Of a stretch of 23,986 bases of DNA, positions 1 to 23,986 are shown in pieces. The position numbers were made by a program, and so were the translations under genes. The DNA comes from a virus (Duplodnaviria > Heunggongvirae > Uroviricota > Caudoviricetes). Positions within the stretch are counted from its first letter, which is position 1. Each line of letters starts with the position of its first letter. Under the pieces are notes generated by a model that was given only the letters and a program-made list of their open reading frames with translations, was not told the origin of the DNA and ran no database searches. The stretch covers positions 1 to 23,986 of IMG/VR virus record IMGVR_UViG_2529292907_000023; one strand, written 5' to 3'.

Positions 1-1536
1 ATGGAAACCTGTTTTAAGATCCTTCAGCTCAAGTTCGACAAGAAGCTGACTAACCGTTGTATCGGACTGACGTTACACATCAGCGCCTCAACCGTTTTTG
101 AGGTTCTTGCCCGCTTCAAAGCCTCTTCTCTGTCATGGCCATTACCTGCTGATATATCCCATGACACGCTGGAGAAACTCATTTTTCCGCCCAAAGACAC
201 CTTTGCATCAGAGCTTGTAATGCCTGACATGTTGTACTTCGATACGGAAATGAGAAAACCAGGTGTGACGCGGCAACTGTTGTGGATGGAATACAAGGCA
301 CAGGCGGGTGACAAAGCGATGGGATACTCGCACTTCTGCCGTTGCTACCGGGAGTGGAAAAAAACGCGACGTCTCTCCATGCGCCAGGAGCATCGTGCCG
401 GCGAAAAGCTTTTTATCGACTTCTGTGGTCCTACGGTTCCTGTTATTAATCCGGACACCGGTGAGATACGCCGCGTGGCAATCTTCGTGGCCGTAATGGG
501 GGCGTCCAACTATACCTACGTTGAAGCGTGCGAAGGTCAGGACATGATGTCATGGTTAAATGCCCACAGCCGTTGCCTGACCTTCCTGGGCGGCGTACCG
601 AAGCTGCTCATCCCCGATAACCTCAGAAGCGCAGTGAAAAAGGCCGATCGCTATGAGCCTGTCATCAACGACAGTTATCAGGCACTGGCTGAGCACTATG
701 GCACGGTTATCATCCCGGCCCGACCACGCAAACCTAAAGATAAACCAAAAGCAGAAAACGGCGTCCTCATCGTCGAACGATGGCTTCTTGCCCGCATCCG
801 TAATGAAACCTTCCACACGCTCAGGGCGCTGAATGCGCGCCTTAGGGAGTTACTGACAGACATGAATAACCGGCCAATGAAGGGGTACGGCAATCAAACC
901 CGTGCAGAACGCTTCCGCATACTGGATGCGCCAGCACTCTCTCCGCTGCCTCTGGCACCTTATGAATACACGGAATACAAAGCTGTGAAGGTTGGCCCTG
1001 ACTACCACGTTGAATATGCCCGTCACTGGTACTCCGTTCCACACGAACTGGTCGGTCAGCGTCTGTCACTGAAGGCGGGGCAGTCGGTGGTACAGCTCTG
1101 GCACAAGGGGCAGTGTGTGGCGCAACATCCGCGCAGCACACATGAATATAAACACACAACCAATCCGCTTCACATGCCAGAGCGCCACCGGCAGCACGGG
1201 ACATGGACACCGGAACGCCTGATCGAGCAGGGAAAACGTACGGGCCCGTCCACAGGCCGGGTGGTTGAATCCATGCTGAAGGCAAAACCCCATCCGGAAC
1301 TGGCTTATCGTGCAGTTCTGGGGCTGCTGGCACTTCAGAAAAAATACGGCCCGGAACGGCTGGAAAAGGCCTGTTACGTTGCCCTGCACTATAACGCCCC
1401 TGACAGACGCTTTATCGACAATCTGCTGCGTCACCATCGGGAGAACCTGGAGCTTCCATTATCCCGCCAGGGCGAACAACATCCGGCATATGCTTCAGAG
1501 CATGAAAACCTGCGTGGTCCGGGCTACTACCACTGA
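1..1536 (+). CDS. istA: IS21-family transposase IstA (possibly N-terminally truncated by the window edge)
   Basis: 511-aa ORF starting at window position 1; central DDE-type region (DFCGP...D...E) and the C-terminal region typical of IstA; immediately followed by istB. Confidence 0.85.
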   Translation: METCFKILQLKFDKKLTNRCIGLTLHISASTVFEVLARFKASSLSWPLPADISHDTLEKLIFPPKDTFASELVMPDMLYFDTEMRKPGVTRQLLWMEYKAQAGDKAMGYSHFCRCYREWKKTRRLSMRQEHRAGEKLFIDFCGPTVPVINPDTGEIRRVAIFVAVMGASNYTYVEACEGQDMMSWLNAHSRCLTFLGGVPKLLIPDNLRSAVKKADRYEPVINDSYQALAEHYGTVIIPARPRKPKDKPKAENGVLIVERWLLARIRNETFHTLRALNARLRELLTDMNNRPMKGYGNQTRAERFRILDAPALSPLPLAPYEYTEYKAVKVGPDYHVEYARHWYSVPHELVGQRLSLKAGQSVVQLWHKGQCVAQHPRSTHEYKHTTNPLHMPERHRQHGTWTPERLIEQGKRTGPSTGRVVESMLKAKPHPELAYRAVLGLLALQKKYGPERLEKACYVALHYNAPDRRFIDNLLRHHRENLELPLSRQGEQHPAYASEHENLRGPGYYH

Positions 1537-1552
1537 CAGAAGGAACAACAGT

Positions 1553-2308
1553 ATGAGTGATAACCTGTTAAACAAACTGACCCAACTGAAACTCCCGGCG
1601 ATGGCCGGGAGCCTGATACGGCAGCGGGAAACGCCTCAGACCTACGACGAACTGTCGTTCGAGGAAAGGCTGACGCTGCTGGTTGATGACGAGCTTCTGA
1701 GCAGGGAAAACAGCCGTGTGGCACGGTTGAGAAAAAATGCCGGCCTGAAATACCAGGCAACACCGGAAGGGCTGCGCTATCCGGCCTCAAGAGGTCTGCG
1801 GGCTGAACAGATGAGAGAACTGCTGAACGGCCACTACATAACCCACAGGAAAAACCTGCTGATAACCGGTCCGACAGGATGTGGCAAGAGCTGGATAGCC
1901 AATGCACTGGGCGAACAGGCATGTCGACAGAAACACAGCGTCCGGTACTGTAGAACCGGGCGATTACTGGAACAACTGGCTCAGGGACGTGTTGATGGCA
2001 GCTGGCTGAAATATCTGAAACAGTTGCAAAAAATACAGGTTCTAATCCTGGACGATCTGGGGCTGGAACAGTTAAGTAACGCCCAGTGTAATGACCTTCT
2101 GGAGCTCATAGAGGATCGTTACGGACAAAGCAGCACGATAGTGGTAAGTCAGTTCCCGGTAGATAAATGGCATGGTCTGATGGAGAACCCAACAACAGCA
2201 GATGCCATCCTGGACAGACTGGTACATAACTCACACCGGGTGGTCCTTCAGGGAGAGTCACTGAGGAAAAATCCCCCGGTAGTGGAAAGCAGCGAAAAAA
2301 CGCGTTAA
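1553..2308 (+). CDS. istB: IS21-family ATP-binding helper IstB
   Basis: 251 aa from ATG at 1553 preceded by AAGGAAC RBS; Walker A GPTGCGKSW and Walker B LILDDLG; DnaC-like AAA+ fold typical of IstB. Confidence 0.9.
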   Translation: MSDNLLNKLTQLKLPAMAGSLIRQRETPQTYDELSFEERLTLLVDDELLSRENSRVARLRKNAGLKYQATPEGLRYPASRGLRAEQMRELLNGHYITHRKNLLITGPTGCGKSWIANALGEQACRQKHSVRYCRTGRLLEQLAQGRVDGSWLKYLKQLQKIQVLILDDLGLEQLSNAQCNDLLELIEDRYGQSSTIVVSQFPVDKWHGLMENPTTADAILDRLVHNSHRVVLQGESLRKNPPVVESSEKTR

Positions 2309-2329
2309 AAAGCGGTAGAAAAAGTTAAG

Positions 2330-2420
2330 TTCCCGGTTGATCGAATGGATGCGAATCGCTGATCGGACTTCGATGCCAATCCGTGATCGAATAGAGCGGA
2401 ATACGCAATCAGAGTGCCTC
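2330..2420 (+). repeat. Sub-terminal direct repeats of the IS21-family element (putative IstA binding sites)
   Basis: TGATCGAATGGA (2338-2349), TGATCGGACTTCGA (2360-2373) and TGATCGAATAGAG (2384-2396) within 60 bp downstream of istB. Confidence 0.5.
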
Positions 2421-2672
2421 TTACTCCTCCCACAAGAACACGATGCAGTAAAATCCATTCAGGCTGAGCCGTATGGACATCTCACACCTGTGACTCTCGG
2501 CATTATCGCCAGAGCATTAACACAGCCCATGCTTATGCGTATTAAGACCAATATAAATAACTGGTTGAATGAAGAATTAAGCTACCTTGATTGTGAGTGG
2601 GACAATCATTACGCAAAAACACAAAAAGAACGCATCTTCAGTCGATTATCCAGCAACAGATAACGAGCCACC

Positions 2673-3479
2673 TTATATACGCCCTTTCAGATAAGTCATC
2701 CCCGGCTGCATCCAGTCAACAGGTGCTTTCTTAAAGGGCGTATTATCAAAATCACGCAGAAGAGCCTCCAGCACAACTGCATCATTGTCAGCACCACTGG
2801 CCATCATTTCAATCTCAGCTGCTACCTGCAGATATCCCATGCAACGACCAATGCGCTTCATCAGCCCCTGCTTTTTATTGTTCTTCAGGTAATCAATGGC
2901 AAATTCAATGAGCGCCTCACTATGCTGGTGCGATGGCGGTGTTAATTTCCCATTTTCTGAGATGGTTATTTTCCCGCCATCTCCGTATACAACAAAGGAT
3001 GGCCGGTTACACTCCCATTCCTGATCTTTATCAGGTGCAGACGCAATAAAATAACGTTTATTTCCTTCCTCTCCGGCACTTTTAACCGTAATGGAGTACT
3101 CAGACTGCAGACAAGACGCCTCTTTTTCTGACCGCAGTGTTGACGGCGGCATCTTCAGAGAACCAGTAATTCTTCCCGGTAGCTTTCCTTTGTAGGTTAT
3201 CAACACATCCTGCGCCTCTAAAATTATGGGGCGCTTTTCCGGCAACGGTTCGTTCCCTTCACATAACCCGGCAGCAACATCCATGAAAAACTGCTTCGCC
3301 TGCTTTTTCGCCTCAGCTTCGTAAAACTCCAGCGTGGCACCTTCAGTACGGTCAAGACTAATCGCCACATTTGGCAACAACAGTGACGGATACCCACCAA
3401 TTTCCAGTACCACAGTAACAGTAATCTTATCCGGGTAATTATTTATCCCTTTAACAACCAGTTCGTATTTTTTCTTCAT
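2673..3479 (-). CDS. Hypothetical protein, 268 aa, in the endolysin position of the lysis cassette; function unknown
   Basis: ATG at 3479 lies 4 nt after the pinholin stop; its SD (GGGGAGAG) is formed by the last codons of the pinholin gene. No N-terminal hydrophobic SAR segment and no lysozyme or transglycosylase motif that I can recognise. About 45% GC. Confidence 0.7.
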   Translation of the reverse strand: MKKKYELVVKGINNYPDKITVTVVLEIGGYPSLLLPNVAISLDRTEGATLEFYEAEAKKQAKQFFMDVAAGLCEGNEPLPEKRPIILEAQDVLITYKGKLPGRITGSLKMPPSTLRSEKEASCLQSEYSITVKSAGEEGNKRYFIASAPDKDQEWECNRPSFVVYGDGGKITISENGKLTPPSHQHSEALIEFAIDYLKNNKKQGLMKRIGRCMGYLQVAAEIEMMASGADNDAVVLEALLRDFDNTPFKKAPVDWMQPGMTYLKGRI

Positions 3480-3483
3480 CGCT

Positions 3484-3699
3484 TTACTCTCCCCGCGCCG
3501 CCTTACGCCGGTCCTCTCTGATTTTGAAATACAGGTTAGTCAGATATGTCAGCAGCCCAAACAGCAGACTCCCCAGCACGCCTATTGCCGCCCACTGAGA
3601 CGGGGAAACCCTGTCCAGCAACTGCAGGAACCAGTAGCCCGTTCCCACCGCTGACGTGGTGTATGACACACCTGTTGTGATTTTTTCCATCTGGTACAT
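3484..3699 (-). CDS. S: Class II holin (pinholin), phage 21 S21-type, dual-start MYQM
   Basis: Protein [71 protein letters not shown] closely matches my recollection of S21 (…[46 protein letters not shown]); GGGAGA RBS upstream of ATG 3699; the longer ORF to 3777 would run through an upstream terminator hairpin. Confidence 0.85.
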
Positions 3700-3849: not shown

Positions 3850-5703
3850 TTATGATGATGCCGGTGCATTTATCTCCAGCACCAGACTTTCTATCTCAAC
3901 GCCATACGCTGCATTTTTGGTAATATCCGTCAGCGTCAGTGCATTCAGTCCCACTGTCAGACTGTCTTTTATGACCTGGAATGCCGGGCCAGCCACTCCA
4001 TTCAGTTTCGGAGTAACCGTGGCACTGCCGGCGGTGAACACCAGCTCCAGCGTCTGCCAGTCGTTACTGTAATTCCCGAACTCGCCCAACTTTGTGTTTC
4101 CGGCTTTCTTGTGATGCATCAGATTCAGTTTGCCGTCTGTGGTCTGGGTGAAGAACGACATCAGGAACGGGTTACCAGTCCCGGTCATCGCCACGACGTC
4201 AGGTAACGCTACATCGGTATACAGATAAATTCCCAGACCGAACTGATTGTTGGTCAGTGCGCCTGACAGTCGAAACTTACAGCTCAGTCTGCCACCCCGT
4301 GTCAGCAGGGAGACTGCGTCATCCACCGGGCGCGTCAGGGACCAGGCTTTATTGCTCTGCTTGGTGATCTTAAATACACCATCTGACAACTGAATTCCGC
4401 CATTCTTAATGCTCCAGCCCTGCGCAGCAGCATCTCCGGCTGTCGGCAACAGGGAGATTGTGCGTACGGATGCATCTTCAGACGGCCCCGATGGCGTGTC
4501 GACGCCGGGCGAGGGTTTGATTTCCGGTGCCTTACCACTGATGAAGGCTGAGGTGCGCCCGGCTGCGTTCAGAATAGCGGTTGCCATACGATCCGGAATA
4601 ATGCTCCTGCGCGCCCATGAACTGAAATGTGTCGGGCGGTTTGATGATACCTGGTTTCCATTCGTTCTCGATGCCGCACCGTAATATCCTGATGCCGGAA
4701 TATCCGGATCTTCTGCCGGTGCGTTAGTGGCGGTATTGACGCCGTTACCGTCTGTCATGAAGGGCACAAAATAAACGCCCTCACTCTCCCTGTTTTTATA
4801 CCCTCCGTACACGGTGTCGTACTGGGTAGCGTATGTATTTTTCCAGTAATACGTCGTGTCACCACAAATCCACGGTACAACTGCAGCACTGCCGCCATGG
4901 CACTGCGCGTTAAATCCGGAAAGGTCAGTACGGAACTGCTTCAGCATGGCCGTGAACAGGTCCGGTTGCTGTGCGTAGGTGGCAGCGCTCATGTCAAATT
5001 CGCCCTGCATCCAGCACACCGCCAGCAACACATTTTTCGGGTTCTTCTGTAATGCAGCTTTAGTGCGCGCAATCAGGTCCTGATATAGCGGTTTACCCAC
5101 ACCCCAGCGTGCCGAATCCTGGCTGGCCCCCGCGTCCGCACTGAATGTCCCCTCCGCGCCCTGGGTGAATGCCGAACCACCACGACAGCATGGTACCAGC
5201 AGGATCCCCGCGTTATTCGGGATATACGGGAGCAGTTTTTTGGCAATATGTAAGCCCTGGCCGACACAGCCGTACTGCCCTTTGCTCAGGTCTGCCTTCG
5301 GATGATTCAGCGTACTCATATCCTGCACATCATGCAGACAGTGGTCAGCCGGGATGATGTCGTTATACGTACAACTCTCTCCACCCGGAGTTACCGTGCT
5401 GCGGCGCGCCAGCTGTTTAATGCGCGGATCCGGAGCATCGTAAGAATCCGGTAACGGAAGCCCTTCACCGTAGGCCATGCCGTTGGACTGTCCGGCAAGC
5501 ACAACCACGTAGAACCAGTCCGGCTCAGATGAAGGGCCGACCTGTGGATCTCCTTCAATAGCCACCGCCTGCATCAGTGTGTACGGCGTAATGGCAACCG
5601 GTCCGCCATATGGCTGCCAGCCCTCTTTCAGTTTGTGTGTCAGCTTTTCCGCAAGGTCTGACGGCGACGCCGCCCTGACAACATCATAGTGTTTAAATGC
5701 CAT
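3850..5703 (-). CDS. nanS-p: Prophage sialate 9-O-acetylesterase NanS-p (DUF1737 N-terminal domain plus SASA/SGNH esterase domain)
   Basis: 617 aa; N-terminus MAFKHYDVVRAASPSDLAEKLTHKLKEGWQPYG (DUF1737-like) followed by the GQSN esterase motif (VVLAGQSNGMAYG); strong RBS GGGAGGA; sits downstream of the tRNA cluster as in Stx and other lambdoid prophages of E. coli. Confidence 0.8.
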   Translation of the reverse strand: MAFKHYDVVRAASPSDLAEKLTHKLKEGWQPYGGPVAITPYTLMQAVAIEGDPQVGPSSEPDWFYVVVLAGQSNGMAYGEGLPLPDSYDAPDPRIKQLARRSTVTPGGESCTYNDIIPADHCLHDVQDMSTLNHPKADLSKGQYGCVGQGLHIAKKLLPYIPNNAGILLVPCCRGGSAFTQGAEGTFSADAGASQDSARWGVGKPLYQDLIARTKAALQKNPKNVLLAVCWMQGEFDMSAATYAQQPDLFTAMLKQFRTDLSGFNAQCHGGSAAVVPWICGDTTYYWKNTYATQYDTVYGGYKNRESEGVYFVPFMTDGNGVNTATNAPAEDPDIPASGYYGAASRTNGNQVSSNRPTHFSSWARRSIIPDRMATAILNAAGRTSAFISGKAPEIKPSPGVDTPSGPSEDASVRTISLLPTAGDAAAQGWSIKNGGIQLSDGVFKITKQSNKAWSLTRPVDDAVSLLTRGGRLSCKFRLSGALTNNQFGLGIYLYTDVALPDVVAMTGTGNPFLMSFFTQTTDGKLNLMHHKKAGNTKLGEFGNYSNDWQTLELVFTAGSATVTPKLNGVAGPAFQVIKDSLTVGLNALTLTDITKNAAYGVEIESLVLEINAPASS

Positions 5704-5897
5704 GAATCCTCCCGGCCGGGATAATATTGTGAGTAAAATGAGGAGCGGGCTGAAGTCCGGAAGTTACAGGACAATGGCAGAAGAGAGACAATAGCCCGCA
5801 ATACGAAAAAGGCCGCGCTATTGCGCAGAGTGATTACTGTCGGATATTATTCGCCAGCTGAAATATTACTTCACGTTTTGTTGTTTATTCCTTGCCG

Positions 5898-5925
5898 CCC
5901 GCGTCTCCCTGCGCGGGATTTTTTT
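5898..5925 (+). terminator. Plus-strand intrinsic terminator (6-bp GC stem, T7 tail) in the tRNA/nanS-p intergenic region
   Basis: CCCGCG-tctccctg-CGCGGG followed by ATTTTTTT on the plus strand. Confidence 0.5.
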
Positions 5926-5931
5926 GTCCAT

Positions 5932-5955
5932 AAGAAAGCCCCTCCGGAGAGGGGC
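5932..5955 (-). terminator. Minus-strand intrinsic terminator-like hairpin (7-bp stem, tetraloop)
   Basis: GCCCCTC-cgga-GAGGGGC; on the minus strand it is followed by TTTCTTAT. Abuts the plus-strand terminator, forming a convergent pair. Confidence 0.45.
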
Positions 5956-6151
5956 TGGAGAGTGGCGCTATGTGCCATTGCATGGTGCCGGGTGCCTCCC
6001 GGTGAATTCAGTACCAGCACCTGAATCCGCGATTATCCCATATACCTACTCGCTGATTGCCCCTCCGCACAGGGGGATTCACCATGCCAGTTTCTTTTAA
6101 CAAACTCCCCGCAAAACAGACAACTGTCAACCGTCTGAATTGTGAGACATT

Positions 6152-6178
6152 TAAAAAAAGGCCCGCAAAAGCGAGCCA
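6152..6178 (-). terminator. Intrinsic terminator immediately downstream of the tRNA cluster
   Basis: On the minus strand GGCTCG-cttttg-CGGGCC followed by TTTTTTTAA, directly 3' of tRNA-Arg(UCU). Confidence 0.6.
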
Positions 6179-6191
6179 GGGAAAATAAGTG

Positions 6192-6268
6192 TGGCGCGTT
6201 GTACTGGATTCGAACCAGTGACCGATTGCTTAGAAGGCAATTGCTCTGTCCGGCTGAGCTAACAACGC
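6192..6268 (-). tRNA. argO: tRNA-Arg (anticodon UCU)
   Basis: Reverse complement GCGTTGTTAGCTCAGCCGGACAGAGCAATTGCCTTCTAAGCAATCGGTCACTGGTTCGAATCCAGTACAACGCGCCA folds as a cloverleaf (7-bp acceptor, GTTCGAATC T-loop, CCA end); anticodon loop CTTCTAA. Symbol assigned only by positional analogy to phage 933W. Confidence 0.9.
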
Positions 6269-6281
6269 AGGGTACAGATAA

Positions 6282-6358
6282 TGGACCGCCATCGAGGACT
6301 CGAACCCCGCGCAACCAGCTTCGAAGGCTGGCGCTCTATCCTGATGAGCTAATGGCGG
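6282..6358 (-). tRNA. argN: tRNA-Arg (anticodon UCG)
   Basis: Reverse complement CCGCCATTAGCTCATCAGGATAGAGCGCCAGCCTTCGAAGCTGGTTGCGCGGGGTTCGAGTCCTCGATGGCGGTCCA; anticodon stem CCAGC/GCTGG with loop CTTCGAA (U33, anticodon UCG, A37). Symbol by positional analogy only. Confidence 0.85.
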
Positions 6359-6365
6359 TATGTGA

Positions 6366-6441
6366 TGGTGGCCCTTGCTGGATTTGAACCAGCGACCTGG
6401 CGATTATGAGTCGCTCGCTCTCACCACTGAGCTAAAGGGCC
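6366..6441 (-). tRNA. ileZ: tRNA-Ile2-like (anticodon CAU, lysidine type; Met cannot be excluded from sequence alone)
   Basis: Reverse complement GGCCCTTTAGCTCAGTGGTGAGAGCGAGCGACTCATAATCGCCAGGTCGCTGGTTCAAATCCAGCAAGGGCCACCA is very similar to E. coli ileX (tRNA-Ile k2CAU) as I recall it; anticodon loop CTCATAA. Confidence 0.9.
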
Positions 6442-8103: not shown

Positions 8104-8484
8104 TTACTTTTTTAGCAGCCAGTCGTCCATCTCCAGTCTTACCCCCAGCACAGACAAACATCCGTCAATAAACCCTTCGGCTATCTGCATCTCAATTCGT
8201 ATTGCTTTTTCGCTTTTCTTTCTCGTCCTGGCTATCTGTCTTTTTGATATTCGCAACAAATAATGAGCAATGAGAAGCGAATACTCCTCAGGTTTTTTCT
8301 GCTTCAGACGAGCAAGACAGTTTTCAATGATAAGTCCGTCATCATCGCAGCAGGCCGGACGTGGTTTAGTGGCAGATGGTAAAAGTCCTTTGAATCCGGC
8401 AGCGATCGGAGAATAGTCCACCCCGGTGTTACCACTTGCAGCCCATGCCCCCCAGCGTTCAAGAACCATCTGAATATCACGCAT
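8104..8484 (-). CDS. Q: Late-gene antitermination protein Q (phage 21/82-type)
   Basis: ATG at 8484 with GGAGA RBS; N-terminus MRDIQMVLERWGAWAA and a CCDDD motif match my recollection of phage 82/21-type Q proteins; followed by a pR'/tR'-like region. The track ORF begins at a TTG at 8499. Confidence 0.8.
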   Translation of the reverse strand: MRDIQMVLERWGAWAASGNTGVDYSPIAAGFKGLLPSATKPRPACCDDDGLIIENCLARLKQKKPEEYSLLIAHYLLRISKRQIARTRKKSEKAIRIEMQIAEGFIDGCLSVLGVRLEMDDWLLKK

Positions 8485-8501
8485 CAACTTTCTCCACAAA
8501 A

Positions 8502-9542: not shown

Positions 9543-9800
9543 TCACGCAGTAAACTCCTTCACCAGTATTTCAAACTGGCTTACCTGTCCTTCCAGTTCC
9601 GCCACGCAATCCACCAGCTCATCCACCGCCTTTTGTGTGCGGTGTTTTGCCTGCAGCAGATCACGAAGCGCCGGAGTAAGCTGCTTGCGGAGCGTATCTT
9701 TTTTCACGCTCGTTTTTTCCATCTGTTCAGCACAACGAAGCATCTCCTGCGCCTGCCGACGAAGTTGTTCCGGTGAAACAGTGATTGTTCTGTTGTTCAA
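9543..9800 (-). CDS. Hypothetical protein (85 aa), predicted coiled-coil
   Basis: ATGA start/stop overlap with the upstream helicase gene (9797-9800) indicates translational coupling. Confidence 0.55.
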   Translation of the reverse strand: MNNRTITVSPEQLRRQAQEMLRCAEQMEKTSVKKDTLRKQLTPALRDLLQAKHRTQKAVDELVDCVAELEGQVSQFEILVKEFTA

Positions 9801-11197
9801 AATAAACGCTCCGTTTTACTGCCCGACATGCGGTTATTGCTGTATCTGCGCGGATTGCCCGGCGTCATGGGTGTGGAAAGAACCCGGGCACTCTCCTGGT
9901 CCACAGGCAGAAAATGTCCGTTATGAAAACGCCGGTAAATGGTCCCGAGCGTGCCATTACGCTGTTTCGTGATGTTGATTTCTGCTATGCCTCTGGCCTG
10001 AGTTTCCGGGTTGTATACCTCATCCCTGTAAAGCATCAGAATGATGTCGGCATCCGCCTCGATTTCCCCGGAGTTTTTCAGGTCCGAGTTCATTGGGCGT
10101 TTATTGGGTCTGGATTCCACGCCGCGGGAGAGCTGGCTCAGAGCAATCAGCGGAAAACCGCCGGATTTTGCCAGGCTTTTAAGTCCCTTTGAGATTTCCC
10201 CCACCGCAAGGTCGTGACGCCCCGTGCTGCGGGTTTTAATCAGGCCGAGGTAATCGACCACCACCAGCGCCGTTTCCGGGTGTTTCATCCGGTGGTGCTT
10301 CGTGGTTGCACATATCTCATCAATGGTCAGGTTTGCCTGGTCCACCATCCAGATATTACGCCCCGTCATTCGTCCCACGCCCTGCGAGAAACGCGCCCAG
10401 TCTTCATCTTCAAAACGGGCAACAGACTTAAGACGGGATACCGGCATTCCACCGGCAGCAGACACCATACGTTCACCAATCTGGATGTTCGCCATCTCCA
10501 TGGTGAACAGAAGCACGCCATGCCCCTGCTCAGTCACCTTGTCGATGATGTCCAGCGCAAGTTCGGTTTTCCCCATCGAAGGACGGGCGGCAATGAATAC
10601 CAGGTCTCCGGGCTCCATACCGCCCGTTTTTGCGTCCAGTTCATCAATACCGGTCATCAGCGCCCTAGATTTCTCCAGTCCCTGATTGCGGCATTCAACA
10701 CGGTCGACCACTTCCGGAAGGACATCATCAATGTGAACCGGCTGAATGACGCCCTTTCCGGTCGACAGTGAGGCCATCATGTTCTGCGCATCCTTCAGGG
10801 CATCCTCGGCTGCTTCACAGGTATACGCATCACGTAAATTCTGTAATGCTTCAGTCAGTGTTTTTTCTGCATCACGCAGTGCGGCATTGCGCCGCAACGC
10901 TGCGACATAGTGCTCCAGTGAAGACTTCACCCAGGTTTTGCGTCCGGTGTCGGTAATCTCCGGGGCAAGTTCCGGCATCTCATTGCACAGCAGTACGGGG
11001 TCAATGACGCCGGATATGCGAGCCTGTCTGCAAATCCCCGCGTAAATATCCCGGTACTGACGCACAAAAAATACATCCGCCGGAAGTGTGGCCAGAATAT
11101 CCATCACTTCCGGATCGGCCCCACGCAGAAAAAACGCACCGATGACAGCGCCTTCCAGGTCATCGTTACGCCATGCCGGGGTGTTCTGGCTGGTCAT
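9797..11197 (-). CDS. Replicative DNA helicase, DnaB family
   Basis: 466 aa; Walker A (ARPSMGKTELALDI) and Walker B (LLFTMEM) motifs and a DnaB-like N-terminal domain; ATGA overlap with the upstream loader gene. Confidence 0.9.
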   Translation of the reverse strand: MTSQNTPAWRNDDLEGAVIGAFFLRGADPEVMDILATLPADVFFVRQYRDIYAGICRQARISGVIDPVLLCNEMPELAPEITDTGRKTWVKSSLEHYVAALRRNAALRDAEKTLTEALQNLRDAYTCEAAEDALKDAQNMMASLSTGKGVIQPVHIDDVLPEVVDRVECRNQGLEKSRALMTGIDELDAKTGGMEPGDLVFIAARPSMGKTELALDIIDKVTEQGHGVLLFTMEMANIQIGERMVSAAGGMPVSRLKSVARFEDEDWARFSQGVGRMTGRNIWMVDQANLTIDEICATTKHHRMKHPETALVVVDYLGLIKTRSTGRHDLAVGEISKGLKSLAKSGGFPLIALSQLSRGVESRPNKRPMNSDLKNSGEIEADADIILMLYRDEVYNPETQARGIAEINITKQRNGTLGTIYRRFHNGHFLPVDQESARVLSTPMTPGNPRRYSNNRMSGSKTERLF

Positions 11198-12093
11198 GCG
11201 GCAACACCTCCGATACGAGAACGGTAGCTGGGCCAGTTAAACGACAACCAGTTGCGCCCGCCATCGGTGATCCTGTCGGCAATCCGGGGACTGATGAACG
11301 CCCACAATTCTTCCGGTGAAAGGTTGCTGATCAGGATAGTTGGCAAAATACCCTCATACCGGGCATTGATAATTTCCTGCAAAATGGCCATTTCAGCCGC
11401 ACTGCCAAACTGAACGCCGACTTCGTCGACAATCAGCAAATCCAGTGACGCATAATGCTCAATGACGTCATCCGCTGTTTTTTCACTGTCATTCCGCCAG
11501 CAGTTTTTCACAGCCCGGGTAAGGCGCATCACGTCGGTGATCTCCACACTGGCCAGATAGTTACGGATGATGTGTTTTGCCATTGATACCGCCAGATGAT
11601 TTTTCCCGGTACCGCAACTGCCGGTCATAACAAGACTGGTACCGTTCTCCAGCATATCTGGCCAGTTCTCCGCATAGCGGCGACAGGCCGCAAGATTTCT
11701 GGCTGCGTCAGGATTAACCTCCAGATAATTATCAAACTCGCAGTCCCGAAAACGCAGAGCAATTCCGGCGTTATCAGTCAGTTCTTCCGCCTTGAGGGAC
11801 GACAGTTCCATGGTCAAATCACTGGCCTCAGCGATCAAGCAGTCAGGGCAGCATGAAATTTTTTCTCTGTCCTCGCCATTACGATCGATCCACACCAGTA
11901 TATGCGTACGATATTTACCGTGTTTTTCGCAATATCCGCGACCTTCACGCATCAGGCAGGAACGATAAGGCCATGGCTTTTCGCCCTTCTGAGCAAATGC
12001 AATCTCTGCCCGTAACTCATCCATTTCTGCCCGTAACTCATCCATTCGCGCCTGTAGTCTTGTTTGTTTCTCACGTTGGTCAATCGTCATCAT
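11194..12093 (-). CDS. DnaC-like helicase loader (AAA+ ATPase)
   Basis: Walker A MTGSCGTGKNHLAVS and Walker B LLIVDEVG; ATG at 12093 preceded by GAGGTG RBS (the track ORF extends to a GTG at 12102); N-terminus contains a tandem MDELRAE duplication. Confidence 0.85.
   Translation of the reverse strand: MMTIDQREKQTRLQARMDELRAEMDELRAEIAFAQKGEKPWPYRSCLMREGRGYCEKHGKYRTHILVWIDRNGEDREKISCCPDCLIAEASDLTMELSSLKAEELTDNAGIALRFRDCEFDNYLEVNPDAARNLAACRRYAENWPDMLENGTSLVMTGSCGTGKNHLAVSMAKHIIRNYLASVEITDVMRLTRAVKNCWRNDSEKTADDVIEHYASLDLLIVDEVGVQFGSAAEMAILQEIINARYEGILPTILISNLSPEELWAFISPRIADRITDGGRNWLSFNWPSYRSRIGGVAA
12005..12046. repeat. Perfect 21-bp tandem duplication (2 copies) inside the 5' end of the DnaC-like gene
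   Basis: TCTGCCCGTAACTCATCCATT occurs twice back to back (12005-12025 and 12026-12046), encoding MDELRAE-MDELRAE in frame. Confidence 0.9.
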
Positions 12094-12103
12094 CGCTGTC
12101 ACC

Positions 12104-22673: not shown

Positions 22674-23986
22674 ATGGATAAAGTCAAATATCCAACAGGC
22701 GTCGAAAACCACGGCGGCACATTACGCATCTGGTTTAATTTTAAAGGTAAACGTGTCAGGGAAAATCTTGGTGTCCCTGACACTGCCAAGAACAGGAAGA
22801 TCGCCGGGGAACTGCGGACATCAGTATGTTTTGCCATCCGCACAGGAAGCTTTGATTATGCTGCACAGTTCCCTGACTCCCCCAACCTTCAGGCTTTTGG
22901 GGTAAGTAAAAAGAAATTACGGTGAAGGAACTTGAAGAAAAGTGGCTGGATCTGAAACGAATGGAAATCTCTGCAAATGCATTCAATCGCTATGAATCCG
23001 TTGCAAGAACGATGGTTCCGAAAATTGGAGGCAGTAGACTGGTGTCATCGGTAACCAAAGAGGAATTGCTGTATATCAGGAAAGATTTGCTGACCGGGTA
23101 TCAGAATTCAACGAAAAACAAAGCAGCAGCAAAAGGACGGAGCGTCGTTACTGTAAATTATTACATGACGACAATCGCTGGAATGTTTCAGTTTGCTGCA
23201 GATCACGGTTACTTAGAAGCAAATCCCTTCCAGGGAATTAAGCCTCTTAAAAGAGCCAGGGCAGAGCCAGATCCGCTAACTCGTGACGAATTTATTCGCC
23301 TGATAGATGCTTGCCGACATCAGCAGACGAAAAACCTGTGGTCATTGGCTGTGTACACAGGAATGCGTCACGGTGAACTGGTCTCCCTGGCCTGGGAAGA
23401 TATCGATCTGAAGGCAGGAACAATTACCATCAGGCGCAATTATACGAAACTTGGTGAGTTCACTCTACCGAAAACTGAAGCAAGCACAAACAGGGTTGTG
23501 CACCTTATCCAGCCCGCTATCAGTGTCCTGAAAAATCAGGCTGAAATGACAAGACTGGGTAAGCAGTACAACATCAAGGTGCAACTACGTGAATATAGAC
23601 GTTCAGTGAACCATGAATGTACTTTCGTGTTTAACCCTCAAGTGGTTAGAAAAAGCGAACAGGTAGGTTTTGTCTACAAAGTCGATTCTGTAGGTGACTC
23701 ATGGGAAACAGCCATTAAGCGTGCAGGGATCAGGCATCGAAAGGCATACCAGTCACGACACACTTATGCGTGCTGGTCATTATCTGCCGGAGCAAACCCA
23801 AGCTTCATTGCCAGCCAGATGGGCCATGCAAGTGCCCAGATGGTATTCAATGTATACGGAGCATGGATGACTGACAGCAATGCAGAACAGATCGCAATGC
23901 TGAATCAGAAGCTGACAGATTATGTCCCAATGATGCCCCATAGTCACCAAAGTGACACCAGAGGCTTATTAAAATCAGTAAGTTAA
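22674..23986 (+). pseudogene. int: Phage tyrosine integrase interrupted by a -1 frameshift in an A-run (arm-binding domain 22674-22925; core and catalytic domains 22922-23986)
   Basis: N-terminal ORF carries an arm-binding-type motif (KYPTGVENHGGTLRIWFNFKGKRVRE); the second ORF carries the catalytic core (R…HTYACWSLSAGANPSFIASQMGHASAQMVFNVY). The frames switch at GTAAGTAAAAAGAAATTACGG (about 22902-22922); a -1 shift at the AAA-AAG codons reads through as ...VSKKEITVKELEEKW... Confidence 0.75.

Follow-up and report, generated by a model that had tools for sequence, protein, structure and literature searches.

A probable ISSso4 insertion between the holin and endolysin genes of a lambdoid Escherichia coli prophage

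The stretch of viral DNA that we analyzed (23,986 nucleotides; hereafter, the window) begins within an insertion sequence, and shortly beyond this element it carries a lysis region with a holin gene and with no endolysin or Rz gene. This raises the question of whether the element has removed part of the late region, as a preliminary description of the locus had proposed, or whether the absent genes instead belong on the far side of an insertion, past the first base of the window. We consider it very probable that an ISSso4 copy was inserted into a 104-aa accessory gene located between a DUF1327 gene and the endolysin gene R of a lambdoid E. coli prophage, and that the distal late genes belong beyond the element.

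Identity and boundaries of the insertion element

The first 2,407 nt of the window (1 to 2407, + strand) correspond to positions 233 to 2639 of a 2,639-bp element, with window position 1 being the ATG of istA and the left 232 bp of the element lying outside the window. istA (1 to 1536, + strand) encodes a 511-aa DDE transposase of the IS21 family (NF033546, E=2e-84, 283.6 bits against a cut-off of 160; PF22483, E=3e-20), in which the rve domain scores 32.1 bits, slightly below its cut-off of 32.6. istB (1553 to 2308, + strand) encodes the 251-aa IS21 helper AAA+ ATPase (NF038214, E=9.4e-77, 257.8 bits against a cut-off of 200; PF01695, E=1e-60). Both genes are intact, and they follow one another on one strand with 16 nt between them, which is the arrangement of the IS21 gene pair. 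These profile matches bear out the earlier assignment of an IS21-family element to the left end of the window. A mechanically called ORF of 332 aa (1310 to 2308) is too long for istB, since the start codon used in RefSeq copies corresponds to the ATG at 1553. The PF01695 match at 11194 to 12102 was considered as a second insertion sequence and rejected, as it is a phage DnaC-like loader adjoining DnaB.

ISSso4 is the ISfinder name of an IS21-family element first found in Shigella sonnei. Many E. coli copies match window positions 1 to 2407 at 99.4 to 100% identity, and both proteins are identical to those of the L003 copy (IstA, WP_000447015.1; IstB, WP_001282653.1), whose IstB has the RefSeq product name “ISSso4 family helper ATPase IstB.” The same two accessions are carried by the IncK plasmid pCT (NC_014477), and the pCT copy shares with ours its length of 2,639 bp, its TG...CA termini, and its five left and two or three right sub-terminal repeats. 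The two copies are 99.96% identical, differing by one mismatch over 2,639 bp that falls outside the window. The pCT copy has been named ISSso4 (PMC6361801), and we identify the present element, from its sequence, as ISSso4, a name based on RefSeq product names and on that one paper’s labeling of the pCT copy. The median copy number of ISSso4 in carrier genomes is 1, with up to 35 places per genome, and the element is often found on conjugative plasmids.

The right end of the element (2338 to 2407) comprises sub-terminal repeats, at about 2338 to 2402, and a terminus (...AATACGCA) that ends in CA at 2407, a position set by the point at which six other copies (five independent copies plus that of pCT) diverge into their own flanks. 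The preliminary description had placed this end near 2431, about 240 bp from a 268-aa ORF; the terminus at 2407 puts the distance at 265 bp. It was right, however, about the sub-terminal repeats, which are inverted copies of five 20-nt repeats (spacing of 22 to 24 nt, consensus about TCGATCAnnGnTTTGGCAT) in the left end of the element, outside the window. We took the sequence of this left end from a contig that is identical to the window. The tips read TGCAAAATGG... on the left and ...GAATACGCA on the right, so that the element has TG...CA termini with terminal inverted and sub-terminal repeats.

The interrupted gene and the order of the late genes

The interval between the element and the 268-aa ORF had been described as a gap in which no ORF is left. 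Positions 2408 to 2672 instead hold codons 21 to 104 of a 104-aa phage gene of unknown function, identical to orf6 of phage 86. The 3' remnant (2408 to 2663, + strand) consists of the last base of codon 20, codons 21 to 104, and the stop, and the right terminus of ISSso4 meets the gene precisely at codon 20/21. The remnant matches phrog_1853 (E=8.4e-50), and orf6 of Stx2 phage 86 (Stx2-86_gp06) shows 100% identity over window positions 2407 to 2700. Intact targets in phage 86 and in strain SW070912 align from window position 2408 on, and the gene is intact in L001 (5943 to 6257). The 104-aa gene is a conserved, accessory phage gene and the target of the ISSso4 insertion.

The late operon runs leftward on the − strand, from a 617-aa SASA-family esterase gene (3850 to 5703; DUF1737-SASA-DUF6645 by Pfam matches), which is the first gene of the operon, through holin gene S (3484 to 3699; 71 aa, class II, P21 type; PF04971, E=9e-33, and PHROG holin families) to the intact 268-aa gene of the DUF1327/YdfR family (2673 to 3479; PF07041, E=1.7e-43). 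A mechanically called holin ORF of 97 aa (to 3777) is overextended, since relatives annotate 71 aa. The holin gene is located downstream of Q (8104 to 8499, − strand), the position of a lysis-cassette holin. The exact esterase protein occurs in 5 contigs only, and the exact 268-aa protein in 627 blocks of the collection. At all 10 of the 10 places listed for the identical 268-aa protein, the order is holin, DUF1327 gene, 104-aa gene (opposite strand), lysozyme, Rz, and terminase, and intact relatives read from the esterase gene through the holin gene, the DUF1327 gene, and the opposite-strand 104-aa gene to endolysin gene R, Rz, and terminase. A ydfR-like gene in this place is also seen in the Qin prophage of E. 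coli K-12, where the order is essQ-ydfR-rrrQ, with the DUF1327 (ydfR) gene between the holin and endolysin genes. Given this precedent, the 268-aa ORF is a normal interposed gene rather than the end of the cassette, although it differs from Qin ydfR in being longer (268 aa, with DUF1327 N-terminal only) and in having the additional 104-aa gene next to it.

Because the element lies within the 104-aa gene, R, Rz, and the packaging genes belong across it, beyond position 1; judging from intact relatives, R should start some 187 bp from the point of insertion, to the left of the element and outside the window. As the preliminary description had stated, the window contains no endolysin or Rz gene: tblastn searches, with two R proteins, Rz, and Rz1 among the queries, found no homologues of endolysin, Rz/Rz1, Ant, Bor, terminase, or capsid proteins in the window, and the 104-aa gene was the sole match among the lysis and late proteins searched. 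The window thus has the holin of a lysis cassette without R and Rz/Rz1, the expected place of which lies beyond both the window and the contig. Their absence had been read as a sign of loss, but the seeming loss comes from where the window and the contig end and is not a demonstrated deletion.

To the right of the element, intact prophages align colinearly with the window at 99.6 to 99.9% identity, beginning at the first base after the terminus, and this colinearity extends across the rest of the window to the integrase gene at its other end. Nothing, therefore, has been deleted on the right side; of the proposal that the element inserted into or partly deleted the late region, the insertion stands and a deletion to the right of the element does not. 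Complete prophages cover 86 to 94% of window positions 2408 to 23986 at 97 to 99% identity, and the prophage of strain 100416 has about 26 kb more of late genes. The window carries the int, CI, DnaB, Q, methylase, and tRNA genes, and the host prophage is a stx-negative, Stx2-phage-86-like lambdoid prophage of E. coli. Phage 86 (NC_008464) and related E. coli prophages, including those of O104:H4 strains, share with it the esterase gene, holin gene S, the DUF1327/YdfR gene, and the opposite-strand 104-aa gene at 99.6 to 99.9% identity. In phage 86, however, the 104-aa gene is followed by R, ant, Rz/Rz1, bor, and terminase, and stx2AB lie upstream of the esterase gene, whereas in the window the 104-aa gene is split by ISSso4 and the stx genes are absent.

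We conclude that ISSso4, 2,639 bp in length with istA and istB intact, transposed into the opposite-strand 104-aa gene between the DUF1327/ydfR-like gene and R. With such an insertion, R, Rz/Rz1, and the genes for packaging and morphogenesis would be cut off from the holin gene and from the promoter-proximal part of the late operon. At a minimum, it would have placed 2.6 kb of oppositely transcribed DNA in the late operon and destroyed one small gene.

The left junction and what it may mean

The left end of the element can be read in a public draft contig, AIFW01000028.1 (GCA_000249615.2), which matches the window over 15,703 nt with 0 mismatches, reaches 246 nt upstream, and ends 14 bp beyond the ISSso4 left end. 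At this junction CGTATTAATTTTGG is joined to TGCAAAATGG, where ...GGGTAAAATCAGA joined to TGCAAAATGG was expected, and the 14 bp are neither the 104-aa target gene nor a target-site duplication. IS21-family elements generate target-site duplications of 4 to 8 bp, and duplications of 5 to 6 bp flank all 7 of the 7 other ISSso4 copies examined. On the right of our copy, ATCAGA (2408 to 2413; the intact target reads GGGTAAA-ATCAGA-GTGCC) is the predicted right-hand copy of a 5- to 6-bp duplication, and it resembles the 5- to 6-bp targets of other copies (ATTCA, TTCAGG, and GCAGAT). No duplication was found, however, when ATCAGA was compared with the 14-bp left flank at the contig end (...ATTTTGG). 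The lack of a duplication is a matter of this copy’s history or of assembly quality rather than of the element’s family; the causes proposed for the left junction are an IS-mediated deletion or inversion, a replicon fusion of the IS21 type, or a contig-end artifact, and the junction accommodates a rearrangement of this kind and an artifact equally well. Given the foreign left flank and the duplications at seven of seven other copies, the simple picture in which R lies immediately beyond the element may be false. The preliminary description had pointed upstream, to displaced genes and a clean target-site duplication, as the place to decide; the left end of the element followed by 14 foreign bp without a duplication leans slightly toward its reading.

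We searched for the origin of these 14 bp. Allowing up to 1 mismatch, CGTATTAATTTTGG was absent from the window, from the 49.5 kb of late region and flanking chromosome of the closest complete relative, and from the other relatives fetched. In complete E. coli genomes and in plasmids, it was not found bordering the left end of any ISSso4 copy. The 14-mer is too short to be searched by itself: in genome_contigs and viral_contigs it gave chance matches in unrelated taxa, with 0 of 240 loci similar to the window or to lambdoid relatives. The best partial match to the left flank, the fimE copy of strain Ecol_517, was rejected, since its flank differs and it has a TTCAGG duplication of its own. We also rejected a tandem (IS21)2 junction, as the left flank is unlike the right end of the element.

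One explanation, to which we assign about an even chance, is that the junction is a true breakpoint at which the DNA to the left was replaced through recombination with a second ISSso4 (by deletion or inversion), through an adjacent deletion, or through replicon fusion. In that case, R, Rz, and the structural genes would either be gone or lie a long way from the holin gene, and lysis and packaging would be lost, which is essentially what the preliminary description had envisaged. The missing duplication and the 14 foreign bp, set against the duplications of the seven other copies, argue for a breakpoint. IS21 transposes via tandem or joined-end intermediates and thereby gives rise to replicon fusions, whose IS copies each border target DNA on a single side (a cointegrate has the order target, IS, donor replicon, IS, target). 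The one-sided target DNA of such products and the frequency of ISSso4 on conjugative plasmids fit this explanation. The evidence amounts, however, to 14 bp at the end of a contig, and the same left junction is missing from complete E. coli genomes and plasmids. In addition, since the 14-mer is absent, with up to 1 mismatch, from about 49 kb of the closest relative’s late region and chromosome and from other relatives, there is no support for a short deletion next to the element inside this prophage. Our suggestion that ISSso4 marks the breakpoint of a deletion, inversion, or replicon fusion that cut the distal late region off from the holin gene, leaving a “locked-in” prophage, is a tentative one, which we place just short of even. 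Immunity, replication, Q, the tRNAs, the esterase, and a holin lacking its endolysin would remain in such a prophage, which would produce neither lysis nor particles.

Alternatively, the event may have been a simple insertion, in which the element is directly followed on its left by the other half of the 104-aa gene, a second copy of ATCAG(A), R, Rz, and the genes for morphogenesis. The 14 bp would then be an assembly artifact, such as a read end misjoined at the repeat boundary or a spur contributed by another ISSso4 copy. We regard such a simple insertion as a real possibility, if one that we would wager somewhat against; it predicts that the 5' part of the 104-aa gene ends in ...GGGTAAAATCAG(A) at the ISSso4 left end. 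The right junction is a textbook transposition junction, the remainder of the prophage appears intact, and no position for the 14-mer was found in related prophages or in the chromosome beside them, all of which are consistent with a simple insertion. Moreover, the contig stops 14 bp past a 2.6-kb repeat, where draft assemblies are least reliable, and ISSso4 can be multi-copy, occupying up to 35 places in a genome. Nevertheless, its median copy number is 1, and a single-copy element would not make such an artifact; a G-to-A change private to the contig’s element, located in its left end, also weakly suggests that copy-specific reads, and not a collapsed consensus, built that end. Finally, although the junction occurs in a single public draft assembly, it is very improbable that an assembler chimera joined the prophage contig to an IS contig with no real insertion, as the join falls precisely at the canonical CA terminus, which a random chimera would not respect to the base, and the flanking ATCAGA resembles the 5- to 6-bp targets of other copies.

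Occurrence of the insertion and its consequences

No match spanning the junction was found in 5,426 complete E. coli genomes or in phage or plasmid collections, the 34-nt right junction was absent from species-representative genomes and metagenome contigs, and none of the chimeric junction ORFs starting at 2337, 2349, or 2373 was on record. A 42-aa remnant ORF was recovered from the same draft assembly, from contig-end fragments, and from one intact locus at which a short start had been called. The insertion site is therefore new, and our copy differs from ISSso4 elsewhere in this site and in lacking a target-site duplication in the sole contig that carries the junction; ISSso4 and its behavior were already known. 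A known element has acted in a known way, and the event is an ordinary one. Its main value is for annotation, which can now set the terminus at 2407, treat the supposed gap as the remnant of a disrupted 104-aa gene, and regard the 268-aa gene as normal in such cassettes.

If the left junction is real, the locus would be another case of prophage grounding by an insertion sequence in pathogenic E. coli and would bear on the inducibility and cargo transfer of such prophages. IS-driven prophage grounding is well documented, and IS629 in the Sp prophages of O157:H7 Sakai is an example of the disruption of lambdoid prophages in pathogenic E. coli by an insertion sequence. The likeness is that of an insertion sequence within a lambdoid prophage backbone that may ground the prophage; in the Sakai prophages, however, the element belongs to another IS family and occupies other sites.

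Identity and ends of the IS element

We found that the IS21-family istA-istB element placed at the left end by the preliminary description agrees with NCBIfam and Pfam alike. The transposase gene istA (1-1536, +), a 511-aa ORF, matches the IstA model NF033546 (E=2e-84, with 283.6 bits where the cut-off is 160) and, in agreement, PF22483 and rve, while the helper ATPase gene istB (1553-2308, +) matches NF038214 (E=9.4e-77) and PF01695 (E=1e-60). The mechanical istB ORF in the six-frame list spans 1310-2308; RefSeq copies begin at the ATG equivalent to 1553. RefSeq labels this IstB "ISSso4 family", and a single base separates the full element from the copy on the IncK plasmid pCT (NC_014477), named ISSso4 in the published analysis of that plasmid (PMC6361801). 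The element is a copy of an IS that already has a name. When window 1-3600 was compared by megablast with 5,426 complete E. coli genomes, many IS copies appeared at 99.4-100% identity, all ending within window 2409-2424, and no record among these genomes reached 80% coverage of the query. The left end of ISSso4 is present in 549 of the 5,426, at a median of 1 place per genome (maximum, 35), and is often carried by plasmids.

To set the terminus, five independent copies were fetched with their flanks and aligned. They share ...GAGCGGAATACGCA, past which the flanks diverge, so that the right terminus lies at window 2407, leaving 265 bp to the 268-aa ORF, where a terminus near 2431 and a gap of about 240 bp had been proposed. 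The common left end, TGCAAAATGGCATC..., starts 232 bp ahead of the istA ATG in all five copies; the element thus measures 2,639 bp, of which the final 2,407 bp fall inside the window. The sub-terminal repeats noticed earlier are real: five 20-nt repeats spaced 22-24 nt apart lie at the left end, with inverted copies at window 2338-2402. Direct target duplications flank the five copies (ATTCA, TTCAAA, ATTGAG, GTATCC, and GCAGAT), a sixth copy in fimE (TTCAGG), and the pCT copy (AAGTAT).

The interrupted gene

Window 2405-3900 matches intact prophages from 2407 on at 99.6-99.9% identity, including those of O104:H4 outbreak strains and strain SW070912, as well as the Stx2-converting phage 86 (NC_008464). 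Their annotated order is SASA-family esterase, class II holin S (71 aa), 268-aa YdfR/DUF1327 protein, a 104-aa hypothetical gene on the strand opposite to these three, lysozyme R, (Ant), Rz/Rz1, (Bor), and terminase. In the alignment, the window tracks the IS copies to ...AATACGCA and then the intact targets (GGGTAAA-ATCAGA-GTGCC) from ATCAGAGTGCC... on, a switch resolved to one base. Since this switch falls inside the 104-aa gene, that gene was interrupted by the IS, and the 265-bp gap, previously described as free of ORFs, holds its 3' remnant (2408-2663, +), which runs from the third base of codon 20 through codons 21-104 to the stop and is 100% identical to phage 86. We regard it as secure that ISSso4 has inserted between the DUF1327 gene and R, within the 104-aa gene. 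It is normal for a DUF1327 gene to lie between the holin and endolysin genes, as ydfR does in Qin of K-12.

The 104-aa gene is assigned to phrog_1853 and has no match in Pfam or NCBIfam. It is optional, since three contigs with an identical 617-aa esterase lack it, passing from the DUF1327 gene directly to R across a 43-bp gap (13031-13074 in contig L018 and 7684-7727 in contig L019); the gene is a moron-like insert. The motif GAGCGG occurs both in the tip of the IS, GAGCGGAATACGCA, and in GAGCGGGTAAA, the target sequence immediately to the left of where the IS inserted (window 2385-2413 versus 5990-6007 of L001, a relative with the gene intact), and because of it the tblastn match of the 104-aa protein stretches back to residue 15; the sharing is probably chance. 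From a TTG within the IS right end, a chimeric ORF of 108 codons (2337-2663, +) runs in frame into the remnant, with in-frame ATGs also at 2349 and 2373. None of these three starts corresponds to a gene call in the databases searched, and a truncated fusion product is conceivable.

The left side of the insertion

The late operon runs on the minus strand from Q (8104-8499, -), with the esterase gene, S, and the DUF1327 gene following in turn, so its continuation is to be sought leftward. The start codon of R in phage 86 is 187 nt past the insertion point, and in 10 of 10 contigs examined that encode an identical 268-aa protein the 104-aa gene, a 177-aa Phage_lysozyme gene, an Rz-type gene, and terminase genes follow. 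On the side expected for R and Rz, the window contains the IS and breaks off inside it. Tblastn queries from two relatives (R, Ant, Rz, Rz1, Bor, terminases, and capsid protein) matched nothing in the window, the sole match being the 104-aa remnant. The earlier claim that no endolysin or Rz genes are left thus holds for the window but carries no information on the genome. The window starts exactly at the istA ATG (1) and ends exactly at the integrase stop codon (23986); these edges are gene boundaries and not biological ends, so the IS left end and everything beyond were cut off by construction.

Few contigs, five in all, encode the exact 617-aa esterase. One of these, the 83.8-kb AIFW01000028.1 (assembly GCA_000249615.2), has IstB and IstA adjoining the DUF1327 gene, is identical to the window across all 15,703 overlapping bases, and reaches 246 nt further. 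This extension comprises the 232-bp IS left end and 14 preceding bases, CGTATTAATTTTGG, at which the contig starts. The IS left end carries a private G-to-A in the fourth sub-terminal repeat (contig positions 102-121, outside the window), GATTTAGCAT versus GATTTGGCAT elsewhere; it is the sole difference from the pCT copy, and the other copies examined all have GATTTGGCAT. A simple insertion would give ...GGGTAAAATCAGA at the left flank. The contig has CGTATTAATTTTGG instead, so the target is not the source of the left flank, and the ATCAG(A) duplication is absent. The preliminary description had proposed looking for a target-site duplication and, upstream of the window, for displaced genes; there is no duplication, and the upstream sequence reached consists of the IS left end and 14 foreign bases before the contig starts. 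The 14-mer was not found within the window, in the relatives' late regions, in 49.5 kb of the closest complete genome that spans the late region and the chromosome next to it, or, among complete genomes and plasmids, beside any end of ISSso4, and large collections gave chance matches only. No other public sequence carries the same IS-prophage join.

There is about an even chance that the foreign flank marks a real breakpoint, produced by recombination with a second copy, by an adjacent deletion, or by IS21-type replicon fusion, in which each IS copy keeps target DNA on one side only. The duplications at seven of seven other copies, the median ISSso4 copy number of 1, and the private base change all point this way. 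Nearly as plausible is a simple insertion, the left flank having been corrupted where a draft contig ends, given that only 14 bases are at stake, that they sit exactly at the contig end beside a repeat, and that they match nothing in the neighbourhood. That the assembler itself made the IS-prophage join is very improbable. The direct effects of the insertion would be the loss of one small accessory gene and the placement of a 2.6-kb element, whose transcription runs counter to that of the late operon, between S and all distal genes. Pathogenic E. coli offers well-documented cases of IS insertions that may ground lambdoid prophages.

The prophage right of the IS

Complete prophages cover 86-94% of window 2408-23986 at 97-99% identity. 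The preliminary description had the IS probably inserted into the late region or deleting part of it; on the right side of the IS, nothing is missing. The gene content includes three tRNA genes, a DNA methylase gene, Q, DnaB, a DnaC-like loader, a CI-type repressor, and, at the far end, an integrase (22922-23986). The prophage is of a familiar type with nothing new in kind; novelty is confined to the insertion site, and the finding is otherwise ordinary. We considered a second IS at 11194-12102 (-), which matches IstB_IS21 (Pfam, E=4e-14) and Bac_DnaA, but it lies directly upstream of DnaB in the replication module and is a DnaC-type helicase loader adjoining the DnaB gene (9797-11197). The tRNA genes (6192-6441; Arg-tct, Arg-tcg, and one with a CAT anticodon, called Met by ARAGORN and Ile in the RefSeq annotation of a relative) lie upstream of the esterase gene, the same placement as in Stx phages. 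The site of stx2AB in phage 86 is here a 488-bp slot without toxin genes (within window 5704-6441), which makes this prophage a stx-negative relative of a Stx2 phage.
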